Origin: Escherichia coli | Lineage (GTDB): Bacteria > Pseudomonadota > Gammaproteobacteria > Enterobacterales > Enterobacteriaceae | Reading direction: 5' to 3' (one strand) | Assembly (NCBI RefSeq): GCF_001677475.2 | Contig: NZ_CP015229.1 | DNA: 64,000 nucleotides | Shown here: piece by piece, positions 1,212 to 6,409 of the stretch | Numbering within the stretch: position 1 is the first letter of the stretch | Layout of the letters: each line of letters opens with the position of its first letter | The notes under the pieces: model-generated | The model's database searches: none | What the model was told of the DNA's origin: nothing | The model's input: the letters and a program-made list of their open reading frames with translations, nothing else | Made by a program: the position numbers and the translations under genes

Positions 1212-3101
1212 TTACGCATCACCACCGAAACGACGACGACCGGTAGAGTCATCACGACGCGGAGCGCGGCCTTCACGACGTTCGCCGCTAAAACGACGAC
1301 CATCACCACGACCACCTTCACGGCGTTCACCGCTGAAGTTACGACCACCTTCACGACGTTCGCCACTGAAACCACGACCACCGCCACGACGCTCACCGCC
1401 AGTATGCGGCTGTGCATCGCCCAGTAACTGCATGTTCATCGGCTTGTTGAGAATGCGAGTGCGCGTAAAGTGTTGCAGCACTTCACCCGGCATACCTTTC
1501 GGCAGTTCGATGGTGGAGTGAGAAGCAAACAGCTTGATGTTACCGATGTAACGGCTGCTGATGTCGCCTTCGTTAGCAATCGCGCCAACGATATGACGAA
1601 CTTCAACACCATCATCGCGGCCCACTTCAATGCGGTACAGCTGCATATCGCCAACATCACGACGTTCACGACGCGGACGATCTTCACGGTCACCACGCGG
1701 GCCACGGTCGTTACGATCGCGCGGACCACGGTCATCACGGTCACGGAATTCACGTTTCGGACGCATCGGCGCATCTGGCGGAACAATCAGAGTACGTTCA
1801 CCCTGTGCCATTTTCAGCAGTGCGGCGGCCAGAGTTTCGAGATCCAGCTCTTCACCTTCTGCCGTCGGCTGAATTTTGCTCAGCAGTGCACGGTATTGAT
1901 CCAGATCGCTGCTTTCCAGCTGCTGCTGTACTTTAGCGGCGAATTTTTCCAGACGACGTTTGCCCAGCAGTTCTGCGTTCGGCAGTTCAACTTCCGGAAT
2001 GGTCAGCTTCATGGTGCGTTCAATGTTACGCAGCAGACGACGCTCACGGTTCTCAACGAACAGCAGCGCACGGCCAGCACGGCCCGCACGACCAGTACGA
2101 CCGATACGGTGAACGTAAGACTCAGAATCCATCGGGATATCGTAGTTAACTACCAGGCTGATACGCTCAACGTCCAGGCCACGGGCCGCAACGTCGGTCG
2201 CAATCAGGATGTCCAGACGACCATCTTTCAGTCGTTCCAGTGTCTGCTCACGCAGCGCCTGGTTCATGTCACCGTTCAGCGCGGCGCTGTTGTAGCCGTT
2301 ACGCTCAAGGGCTTCTGCCACTTCCAGAGTCGCGTTTTTGGTACGAACGAAGATAATCGCCGCATCAAAATCTTCCGCTTCCAGGAAACGTACCAGTGCT
2401 TCGTTTTTACGCATACCCCAGACAGTCCAGTAGCTCTGGCTGATGTCAGGACGGGTAGTCACGCTGGACTGAATGCGCACTTCCTGCGGCTCTTTCATAA
2501 AGCGGCGGGTAATGCGACGAATCGCTTCCGGCATGGTTGCAGAGAACAGAGCGGTCTGATGACCTTCCGGGATCTGCGCCATAATAGTTTCAACGTCTTC
2601 GATGAAGCCCATGCGCAGCATTTCGTCAGCTTCATCCAGAACCAGACCGCTCAGTTTAGAAAGGTCCAGAGTGCCACGTTTCAGGTGATCCAGCAGACGG
2701 CCCGGCGTACCGACAACGATCTGCGGCCCCTGACGCAGGGCGCGTAATTGCACGTCATAACGCTGGCCGCCGTACAGGGCAACCACGTTTACGCCGCGCA
2801 TGTGTTTAGAGAAATCCGTCATTGCCTCAGCAACCTGTACCGCCAGTTCGCGGGTCGGTGCCAACACCAGAATCTGTGGTGCTTTCAGCTCAGGATCAAG
2901 ATTCTGCAGCAGAGGTAAAGAGAATGCTGCAGTTTTTCCGCTCCCCGTCTGGGCCATACCCAGGACGTCGCGGCCATTCAGCAGATGTGGAATACACTCT
3001 GCCTGAATTGGAGATGGTTTTTCGTAACCCAGATCGTTAAGGGCTTCAAGGATAGGAGCCTTCAGGCCCAGATCTGCAAAAGTGGTTTCGAATTCAGCCA
3101 T
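1212..3101 (-). CDS. deaD: ATP-dependent DEAD-box RNA helicase DeaD/CsdA (629 aa)
   Basis: Translation [33 protein letters not shown]... with DEAD-box motifs ([25 protein letters not shown]). Track ORF (651 aa) over-extends; ATG at 3099..3101 gives the 629-aa product. Confidence 0.95.
1230..1420. repeat. Imperfect ~33-nt tandem repeats encoding the Arg/Gly-rich C-terminal tail of DeaD
   Basis: Three copies of cttcacgRcgttcRccRctgaa...acgaccac on the plus strand, giving the peptide repeats [10 protein letters not shown] in DeaD. Confidence 0.6.
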
Positions 3102-3174
3102 GTAGTACGTGTGCCTCAAAATTAATGGCGGCCAGTCTACATAACTCATCATGAAATTGATCAGCAATTTTCAT
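3094..3174 (-). CDS. yrbN: Small protein YrbN (26 aa) overlapping the deaD start
   Basis: Minus-strand ORF ATG(3172..3174) to TGA(3094..3096) translates [26 protein letters not shown]; matches my recollection of the annotated K-12 small protein between nlpI and deaD. Confidence 0.55.
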
Positions 3175-3280
3175 TGAAAAGTGTGAACCGGCTCAAAGTA
3201 GGTGTATTAACGAACAACAACGCCCTCACCCGTTAAGGTGATGGCAATCAAAAAAGATTACGGGCTGATGTGTACGTCAG

Positions 3281-4165
3281 CTATTGCTGGTCCGATTCTG
3301 CCAGGTCATCTTGGTCCTGGCCCAGGAGCGATAATTCCAACAATGCGTATCGGTGCTCAACAAAGTTATGAACGTTGTTGGCAACCGCCAGTTTGAACAG
3401 TGCCGTGGCGCTGTCCAAATCCCCCAGACTTAGGTAGTACTTACCTAAATAGAAGTTGGTTTCACTGAGATGCTCAGCGAGCGAGGTGTTATCCGTTGCG
3501 TCCGCCTTGAGCCTTTCCATTAACGTTTGTTCGCTAATGTTGCCCAGGTAGAACTCGACAATGTTCCATCCCCACTGTTCCTTATCCGATTTTTCGAAGT
3601 GCTGTTTCAACACTTCTTTAGCCTGCTTCTCATCGAGCTTCTGCTCGGCGAGATAAAGCCACAGACTACGGAAAGGATCATTGGGATCGTCTTGATAAAA
3701 CGCCAGCAGATCATCTTGCGCTAACTTGTCACGACCGCCGTAATATAATGCGATCCCGCGATTCAAGTGCGCGTAGTTGTAAGTTGGATCAAGCTCAAGT
3801 ACAGAATCAAACGCTTCATAGGCAGCATCAAAATTGCCTGCCTGCGTTAAATATATGCCTAAGTAATTGAATACTTCAGGCATATCCGGTCGGATTGCCA
3901 GCGCTTGCGAAAAATCGTTACGCGCTAATGCCCTCAGACCGAGACTATCATACAACACTCCGCGCTCATATAAAAGCTGTGCGCGTTCGTCATCGGTTAA
4001 AGCCCGACTGGCAAGGATTTGTTCCATACGTGCCAGAATCACTTCCTGCTGTAAAGTCGGTTGCAATGGTACCGCGAGGACTTCACTTTTACGCCAGGAA
4101 GTATTACTGCATCCTGCAAGCGTAAGTGCTGTCGCAACGAAACACCAGCGCAAAAAAGGCTTCAT
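3281..4165 (-). CDS. nlpI: TPR-repeat lipoprotein NlpI (294 aa)
   Basis: Translation [26 protein letters not shown]... with lipobox LAGC and TPR-like repeats; conserved position upstream of deaD. Confidence 0.95.
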
Positions 4166-4273
4166 TTCCCACTCCCGAAGACCACGGTTGAATGAACGTC
4201 CTGTTCCCGGTTGCTAACAAGGCGTCCTGCCCGGTTAAAAGCCCCCCGCCGCAGCGGAGGGCAAATGGCAACC

Positions 4274-6409
4274 TTACTCGCCCTGTTCAGCAGCCGGAGC
4301 TTCCGGTGCTGCAGCAGGTTGAGACTGCTCAGTCGCTTCTTTAATGCTCAGACGGATACGGCCCTGGCGATCAACTTCCAGAACTTTCACCGGTACTTCC
4401 TGACCCATCTGCAGGTAATCGGTCACTTTCTCAACGCGTTTGTCAGCGATCTGAGAGATGTGTACCAGACCTTCTTTACCGCCGCCGATGGCAACAAATG
4501 CGCCAAAGTCAACTATACGGGTCACTTTACCATTGTAGACGCGGCCCACTTCGATTTCTGCAGTGATCTCTTCGATACGACGAATAGCATGTTTCGCTTT
4601 CTCGCCGTCGGTCGCTGCGATTTTCACAGTACCGTCATCTTCGATTTCGATGGTGGTGCCAGTTTCTTCGGTCAGAGCACGGATAACAGAACCGCCTTTA
4701 CCGATAACGTCTTTGATCTTGTCCGGGTTGATCTTGATGGTATGGATACGCGGAGCGAACTCAGAGATATCGCCGCGCGGCGCGTTGATCGCCTGTTCCA
4801 TTACGCCCAGGATATGCAGACGCGCACCTTTAGCCTGGTTCAGTGCAACCTGCATGATCTCTTTGGTGATACCTTCAATTTTGATATCCATCTGCAATGC
4901 AGAGATACCGTCGCGGGAACCCGCAACTTTGAAGTCCATATCGCCCAGGTGATCTTCGTCGCCTAAAATGTCAGACAGTACAACGTAGTTGTCGCCTTCT
5001 TTCACCAGACCCATTGCGATACCCGCAACAGCAGCTTTGATCGGCACACCTGCGTCCATCAGCGCCAGAGACGCGCCGCACACGGAAGCCATAGAAGAAG
5101 AACCGTTGGATTCGGTGATTTCAGACACTACACGTACGGTGTACGGGAATTTGTCCATATCCGGCATGACTGCCAGCACGCCGCGCTTCGCCAGACGACC
5201 GTGACCAATTTCACGACGCTTCGGAGAACCGACCATGCCGGTTTCGCCTACGGAGTACGGAGGGAAGTTGTAGTGGAACAGGAAGGTGTCAGTACGTTCG
5301 CCCATCAGTTCATCAAGAACCTGCGCGTCACGAGCAGTACCCAGCGTTGCGGTAACCAGCGCCTGCGTTTCACCACGGGTGAACAGCGCAGAACCGTGAG
5401 TACGCGGCAGCACGCCAGTACGCACATCCAGACCACGGATCATATCTTTTTCACGACCATCGATACGCGGTTCGCCTGCCAGTACGCGGCTACGAACAAC
5501 GTTTTTCTCGATCGCGTGCAGAATTTCACCCAGTTCGTTTTCGTCCAGGGTTTCGTCTTCAGCAAGCAGCGTCGCGATGGTTTCAGATTTGATGACATCA
5601 ACCTGCGCATAACGCTCTTGTTTGTCGGTGATGCGGTAAGCATCACTCAGACGAGCTTCAGCCAGTGCAGCAACGCGCGCGTTCAGCGCTTCGTTTACCG
5701 GCTCCGGCTGCCAGTCCCAACGCGGTTTACCGGCTTCTTTCACCAGTTCATTGATGTTCTGAATAACAACCTGCTGTTGTTCATGACCGAACACTACTGC
5801 GCCCAGCATCTGGTCTTCACTCAGCAGTTCAGCTTCAGATTCAACCATCAGTACAGCGGCTTCAGTACCCGCAACAACCAGATCCAGTTTGCTCTCTTTC
5901 AGCTCGTCCTGAGTCGGGTTCAGTACGTACTGGTCATTGATGTAACCTACGCGGGCAGCACCAATCGGACCATTGAACGGAATACCAGACAGAGACAGTG
6001 CTGCGGAAGCACCAATCATCGCGACGATATCCGGGTTAACTTGCGGGTTAACAGAAACCACGGTGGCGATAACCTGAACTTCGTTGACGAAGCCTTCCGG
6101 GAACAGCGGGCGAATCGGGCGGTCAATCAGACGCGCGATCAGGGTTTCGCCTTCGCTTGGGCGGCCTTCACGACGGAAGAAGCTACCCGGGATACGACCA
6201 GCAGCGTAGGTACGCTCCTGATAGTTAACGGTCAGTGGGAAGAAGTCCTGACCTGGTTTGGCTTTTTTCTGGCCAACAACGGTAACAAATACCGCGGTGT
6301 CATCCATGCTAACCATAACAGCGGCAGTAGCCTGACGAGCCATCATGCCGGTTTCCAGAGTCACGGTGTGTTGGCCGTACTGGAATTTACGAACGATCGG
6401 ATTAAGCAA
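4274..6409 (-). CDS. pnp: Polynucleotide phosphorylase PNPase (711 aa), TTG start
   Basis: Translation (M)[30 protein letters not shown]... through KH/S1 C-terminus; start is TTG (complement of 6407..6409), as known for E. coli pnp. Track ORF (740 aa) over-extends. Confidence 0.95.

Follow-up and report, generated by a model that had tools for sequence, protein, structure and literature searches.

We estimate a probability of roughly 0.55 that yrbN, the small gene that overlaps the start of the helicase gene deaD in Escherichia coli, is a translated leader ORF acting in cis, whose translation would unmask the deaD start and couple to it, and that it does not work through the peptide it encodes, which is probably a by-product. 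As judged from comparison across species, selection appears to act on the nucleotides and on the open frame rather than chiefly on the peptide. A protein-type pattern of selection is contradicted by three features of the gene: (i) the synonymous sites of codons 10–16 are frozen; (ii) codons 3–6 and 17–19 are free to change; and (iii) the C-terminal third of the peptide has been lost in some Erwiniaceae.

The gene lies on the minus strand at 3094–3174 of the window, by which we mean the whole 64,000-nt stretch of DNA that was analyzed, and reads from an ATG at 3174–3172 through 26 sense codons to a TGA at 3096–3094. The initial annotation had described a 26-codon minus-strand ORF at this position, ending 8 nt inside deaD in a different frame, and had named it YrbN. 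Its description of the ORF and of the overlap is confirmed, the translation being identical to the peptide given there, and the name is borne out by several sources. RefSeq annotates exactly the same ORF, between nlpI and deaD, as 'yrbN: protein YrbN' (WP_010723222.1); in the protein collection, YRBN_ECOLI is the name of an identical sequence; and the NCBIfam equivalog model NF033440 (small_YrbN) scores it at 76.3 bits against a cutoff of 33, with residues 1–26 aligned to profile positions 1–26. The position is also that of the family, between nlpI and deaD and overlapping the deaD start, and the same layout is found in 83 loci of other species. A local Pfam-A search with the YrbN peptide returned no family; since the Erwinia and Pantoea orthologues nevertheless carry the label PF28071:YrbN among precomputed Pfam hits, the PF28071 model is probably newer than the local copy.

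The yrbN gene of E. coli K-12 (b4685, NF033440, PF28071; UniProt accession of the product C1P618 (PMC13339815)) has the same sequence, position and overlap and is the gene itself, with no difference between the two. In the MG1655 feature table it occupies 3307853–3307933 (YP_002791258.1), again with an 8-nt deaD overlap, its ATG being at 3,307,933 and that of deaD at 3,307,860. A 381-nt region was matched in 5425 of 5426 complete E. coli genomes, with an identity of at least 99% in 5424, and the annotation in the listed top matches runs deaD, 'yrbN: protein YrbN', nlpI. The gene is thus already known: it has been part of the E. coli K-12 and RefSeq annotation for years, and it was discussed within the deaD leader in a 2021 preprint, which describes a 26-codon gene with 8 overlapping nt inside the 838-nt csdA/deaD 5'UTR and credits Hemm et al. 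2008 with its discovery as a 26-codon ORF via sequence-conservation models (10.1101/2021.03.08.434349). The database status of YrbN is 'uncharacterized'. A length of 26 codons is unremarkable in itself, given the 87 ORFs of 20 aa or more that overlap the window's first 6 kb, and it is conservation, not size, that raises this ORF above chance. Hemm et al. reportedly detected YrbN in 2008 by epitope tagging. A candidate piece of evidence for cold induction, the label 'yrbN_PAIR_0' in a Figure 2 legend concerning cold-shock accumulation, was rejected, since the text assigns that panel to YnfR, which adjoins cspI in the Qin prophage (PMC6001520); it is probably a leftover working label.

Downstream of yrbN, deaD occupies 1212–3101 on the minus strand (629 codons and a stop; RefSeq), starting with ATGGCTGAATTCGAAACC (MAEFET...) at 3101. 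The two genes share the 8 nt ATGGCTGA (3094–3101, minus), made up of the deaD start codon (3101–3099) through to the yrbN stop codon (3096–3094). Upstream lies nlpI (3281–4165, minus), whose 3' part belongs to the deaD leader, transcription of deaD starting mainly 838 nt upstream; this long leader is subject to Rho-dependent termination, and the 720-nt region needed for DeaD autoregulation is upstream of yrbN (PMC7430678). The constructs used in that study of the leader all retain its last 100 nt, which contain yrbN, and yrbN is unmentioned there (PMC7430678). A simple scan of 2950–3450 found no promoter-like or terminator-like site, and in RNA-seq of E. amylovora, expression of yrbN increases along with that of the adjoining DEAD-box helicase gene (PMC9371280). 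Co-transcription of yrbN and deaD is well supported, and the two have the arrangement of a coupled pair, in which a single transcript has the stop of the first gene only a few nucleotides away from the start of the second: an 8-nt overlap, neither promoter nor terminator between them, and a leader of 838 nt.

Other parts of the leader are conserved as well. In the last 60 codons of nlpI (3284–3463, minus), synonymous sites are unusually conserved: of the 14 four-fold sites whose amino acid is invariant, 5 have the same third base in all 77 species, versus 0 of 27 in deaD, a pattern that fits the 3' part of nlpI doubling as regulatory deaD leader. The hexamer CTGACG (3275–3280, minus), directly after the nlpI stop, is non-coding yet invariant in 77 of 77 unique sequences. 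A conserved hairpin follows 36 nt after the same stop (3222–3245, minus), with the sequence GCCAUCACC-UUAAC-GGGUGAGGGC and then GUUGUUGUUCGUU; it shows a few compensatory changes (A-U to G-C once, C-G to U-A three times) and was not called by the simple terminator scan. A 22-codon GTG ORF at 3161–3229 (minus), which runs over the yrbN start and the invariant block upstream of it, is not a conserved gene, as 1-nt indels in several genera (alignment columns 134 and 138) break its frame.

Conservation of the yrbN frame was assessed in 80 loci collected via NlpI, with one genome per species, together with Yersinia, E. amylovora and Pantoea. The comparison comprises 83 leader-bearing loci with 77 unique sequences and samples Enterobacteriaceae, Erwiniaceae and Yersinia only; the genome scan retained only NlpI relatives of at least 89% identity, and two NlpI protein searches, the second with a profile, returned almost only Erwiniaceae. 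Loss of the frame in relatives, which the initial annotation had named beforehand as the observation that should tell against the ORF, was not seen: an ATG-started ORF of 26, 25 or 18 codons is intact in 83 of 83 loci from the three families, encoding 43 distinct peptides.

Within yrbN, length changes are of 3 nt only, whereas the upstream intergenic DNA contains indels of 1, 2 and 4 nt. Because the deaD frame is also open upstream, 3-nt indels are uninformative as to which frame matters, and it is the stop codons that discriminate. The hypervariable codons 3–6 (3157–3168, minus), which are predicted to form a hairpin loop, always measure 12 nt and never contain an in-frame stop; the 31 distinct variants of this segment have no stops in the yrbN frame, whereas 11 of them contain one when read in the deaD frame and 13 when read in the remaining frame. 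Composition-preserving shuffles of codons 3–6 gave a mean of 9.7 in-frame stops, and none of 5000 reached zero, although the variants are related and this comparison overstates their independence; its direction is nevertheless clear.

The second hypervariable segment, codons 17–19 (3118–3126, minus), is the predicted loop of a hairpin, referred to below as hairpin B, and measures 9 or 6 nt; in Pantoea, Mixta and Winslowiella, codon 19 is TAA. In these three, yrbN ends 17 nt before the deaD ATG, directly before the sequence GAGG, and drops the last eight residues of the peptide, which elsewhere are encoded by the deaD ribosome-binding region. Both hypervariable segments change at all three codon positions, and mostly non-conservatively. 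The overlapping TGA is kept in 76 of the 77 unique sequences, and its T, which is the third base of deaD codon 2, is invariant despite being a four-fold site. Winslowiella combines the early yrbN stop with loss of the overlapping TGA.

The sequence just after the deaD ATG varies among these loci. An 18-nt insertion, which makes the DeaD N-terminus longer, is present in the Buttiauxella group (L045, L047, L063, L065, L066 and L070) and in Winslowiella (L081); the Buttiauxella-type insert is the repeat-like ATCATCGAGACTACTACT, while that of Winslowiella is a different 18 nt. The Cedecea group has a shorter insertion, of 3 nt, at the same place.

In three distant deaD loci, which were picked from DeaD cluster representatives (DeaD identities of 72%, 56% and 56%), an HMM built from the 43 YrbN peptides found no YrbN homologue above noise. 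Locus L085, a metagenome contig with a GC content of 26%, pnp-nlpI-deaD synteny and a DeaD that is 72% identical, contains an ORF at 2402–2488 that ends 13 nt before deaD. This ORF of 28 codons, MFCYFLGELYYSLRKLALLVVNNCIYAV, was considered as a YrbN homologue and rejected, since it is alike by eye but has a noise-level score with the YrbN HMM. Leader ORFs may recur ahead of deaD even where their sequences are not homologous.

Between the two hypervariable segments lies an invariant core, GAGTTATGTAGACTGGCCGCC, which corresponds to yrbN codons 10–16 (3127–3147, minus) and is conserved at all three codon positions. Across the 77 unique sequences from three families, these codons (GAG TTA TGT AGA CTG GCC GCC) are essentially invariant at every position. 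The deaD genes of the same genomes provide a yardstick: at all 27 four-fold sites where the amino acid never changes, the third base varies, with a major-allele frequency of 0.40–0.91. We also scanned metagenome contigs, leaving all synonymous positions of the M-K-x4-core motif free and requiring that codon 15 not be GCC. The 21 stretches found (20 of Yersinia type and one of Erwiniaceae type) have canonical codons throughout, except for GCC to GCT at codon 15. This C-to-U change is the sole synonymous change seen, and it retains a G-U pair in the predicted hairpin (pair 184–199).

The start signals of the two genes were examined by their predicted duplexes with the anti-Shine-Dalgarno sequence. 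No Shine-Dalgarno sequence was found for yrbN, the best duplex in the 25 nt upstream (−3.9 kcal/mol) being equalled by 29% of random 25-mers from the window. For deaD, a Shine-Dalgarno-like GAGG lies within yrbN codons 20–21 (3114–3117, minus); it is invariant in the 77 sequences, forms a duplex of −5.6 kcal/mol, and stands 12 nt ahead of the AUG, a spacing that is 9 nt in Yersinia. A Shine-Dalgarno sequence that is distant, weak and possibly masked is as expected of a start that relies on coupling.

Two alternative RNA folds, both plausible as predictions, involve the core. In the minimum-free-energy fold of the E. coli segment 3200–3085, codons 11–16 form the 5' arm of hairpin B, AUGUAGACUGGCC (3130–3142, minus), and are predicted to pair with the deaD ribosome-binding region. 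The predicted 3' arm, GGCACACGUACUACAU (3100–3115, minus), covers part of the deaD Shine-Dalgarno sequence as well as the AU of the deaD AUG, and the partner of codons 11–16 includes GGCAC..GUACUACAU, with AUGUAG opposite CUACAU. The predicted probability that the deaD AUG is unpaired is only 0.04–0.09, and the potential to form hairpin B is widespread, with 93.5% of cells paired across the 77 sequences. RNAalifold, applied to the alignment, prefers structure A, in which the same core is paired with the invariant upstream block TTTGAGCCGGTTCACA (3182–3197, minus), the predicted pairing being between GCCGGUU (3186–3192) and GACUGGC (3131–3137). When either fold is forced, structure B is favored over A by about 2.3 kcal/mol at 10–37 °C. 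Common to both folds is a predicted inner hairpin (3144–3182, minus) that buries the yrbN AUG (3172–3174) and has codons 3–6 as its loop. Both variable segments of the peptide match predicted loops, while the invariant segments match predicted stems.

No covariation was seen for either fold across the 77 sequences, the stems being free of any variation. Folded singly, the sequence shows no exceptional stability (z = −1.48), and the Rfam 15 covariance models, searched against both strands of 2900–4300 at E ≤ 10, gave no family match, the only hits being three chance-level microRNA/snoRNA matches, none of them in 3085–3200.

Coupling to deaD translation, which the initial annotation had raised as a possibility, would fit the conserved overlapping stop, the weak and distant deaD Shine-Dalgarno sequence and the predicted masking hairpin. 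We propose the following mechanism. The ribosome-binding region of deaD, which has only the GAGG 12 nt from the AUG to offer, would be masked by its predicted pairing with yrbN codons 11–16. A ribosome translating yrbN would melt this hairpin and terminate at the UGA, 5 nt past the deaD AUG, after which deaD could be started by the same or by a fresh ribosome, so that coupling would consist of both unmasking and re-initiation. The invariant block upstream of yrbN would serve as the alternative partner of the core, and the resulting two nearly isoenergetic folds could set the degree to which deaD depends on yrbN translation. The analysis shows which gene this is, the overlap, the conserved frame and the constraint on the nucleotides of the core; the two folds and the coupling, as well as any link to temperature or to DeaD itself, we infer.

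Several points weigh against coupling. Without a Shine-Dalgarno sequence and with an AUG that is predicted to be paired, yrbN may be translated only weakly, and the invariant yrbN ATG could be conserved as part of a stem. In the preprint, moreover, GFP repression was equal whether the construct carried only the first 738 nt of the 5'UTR, without yrbN, or the full 838 nt, yrbN included, and this reporter gives no sign of a positive yrbN effect (10.1101/2021.03.08.434349). The same preprint calls the YrbN peptide a possible leader peptide (10.1101/2021.03.08.434349).

One of the other explanations is that YrbN is a free-standing small protein acting in trans on a target such as DeaD, the ribosome or the degradosome, with the overlap only ensuring co-expression. 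Such a protein would agree with a frame that is kept open, with a conserved 10-residue core in 43 distinct peptides, and with the existence of curated families (NCBIfam NF033440, and Pfam PF28071 in the precomputed hits). However, selection at the protein level leaves unexplained why the core is frozen at its synonymous sites too; the N- and C-terminal thirds vary non-conservatively, the last 8 residues being dropped in three Erwiniaceae; and the HMM of the 43 peptides stays at noise in the three distant deaD loci. We therefore regard a trans-acting protein as improbable. It is doubtful, too, that the region serves solely as RNA, whether as a structure or as a binding site within the deaD leader, with an incidental open frame whose translation has no role. 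Three blocks that are invariant at the nucleotide level, variable segments that fall into predicted loops, the lack of a Shine-Dalgarno sequence before yrbN and the predicted pairing of its AUG would all suit such an element. Yet the absence of in-frame stops from the first loop (0 of 31, versus 11 and 13 in the other frames) and its fixed length of 12 nt, the restriction of length changes in the second loop to 3 nt, and the conservation of the TGA inside deaD through an otherwise free third codon position all speak against this view; according to the preprint, moreover, it was as a small-protein gene that Hemm et al. 2008 found yrbN (10.1101/2021.03.08.434349).

Stop codons also bear on the idea that the conserved stretch extends DeaD at its N-terminus. 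Upstream of the ATG, this frame stays open to a TTG at 3167, giving a 651-aa ORF at 1212–3167, and 3-nt indels preserve this frame as well; however, RefSeq starts DeaD at the ATG at 3101, and stops in the deaD frame in 11 of the 31 first-loop variants of other species refute the extension, to which we assign practically no likelihood. Finally, and only tentatively, the 'YrbN protein family' could be the trace left at the deaD start by a conserved RNA switch with two states, with an ORF that only needs to be read through by ribosomes. Pairing of the core (codons 10–16) with the deaD ribosome-binding site would then be the off state and pairing with the invariant upstream block the on state, a reading that we consider possible but not probable.

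Interpreted as a translated leader ORF acting in cis, yrbN can be set beside several known systems. Translational coupling by unmasking operates in the coat-replicase pair of the RNA phage MS2 and in many overlapping operon genes. As in those pairs, the upstream stop lies at or over the downstream start, and the downstream ribosome-binding site is predicted to pair within the upstream ORF, so that translation would open it; unlike in those pairs, the yrbN ORF is only 26 codons long, has no Shine-Dalgarno sequence and no known functional protein, and the dependence of deaD on it is something that we infer. Leader ORFs also control Rho-dependent termination or attenuation, as do mgtL in the mgtA leader, trpL and pheL. 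Like these, yrbN is a short ORF in a long regulatory leader under Rho-dependent termination (PMC7430678), and alternative predicted folds involve the ORF. Unlike these, it occupies the extreme 3' end of the leader, where it runs into the start of the regulated gene, contains neither a regulatory codon run nor a known arrest motif, and has the 720-nt DeaD-autoregulation region upstream of it. The thermosensor of the cspA 5'UTR (Rfam cspA thermoregulator) is alike by analogy only, being a cold-shock leader with alternative structures that affect access to the start; it differs in that cspA has no leader ORF, and the deaD leader (2900–4300) has no Rfam match.

Since yrbN has long been annotated, the gene itself adds nothing as a finding, and the secondary point is that a 'protein family' resembles a translated RNA switch at the deaD start. 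The value of the comparative pattern is modest: it suggests that the 'uncharacterized protein YrbN' is better seen as a regulatory leader ORF that is translated and fused with an RNA structure, and it offers a simple design by which deaD translation could be gated. Published studies of this leader have dealt with transcription, mRNA stability and Rho-dependent termination, and a gating of deaD translation lies outside that scope. If the two-state switch is real, yrbN would be a cis-acting translational control device for the cold-shock helicase, possibly responsive to temperature or to unwinding by DeaD.
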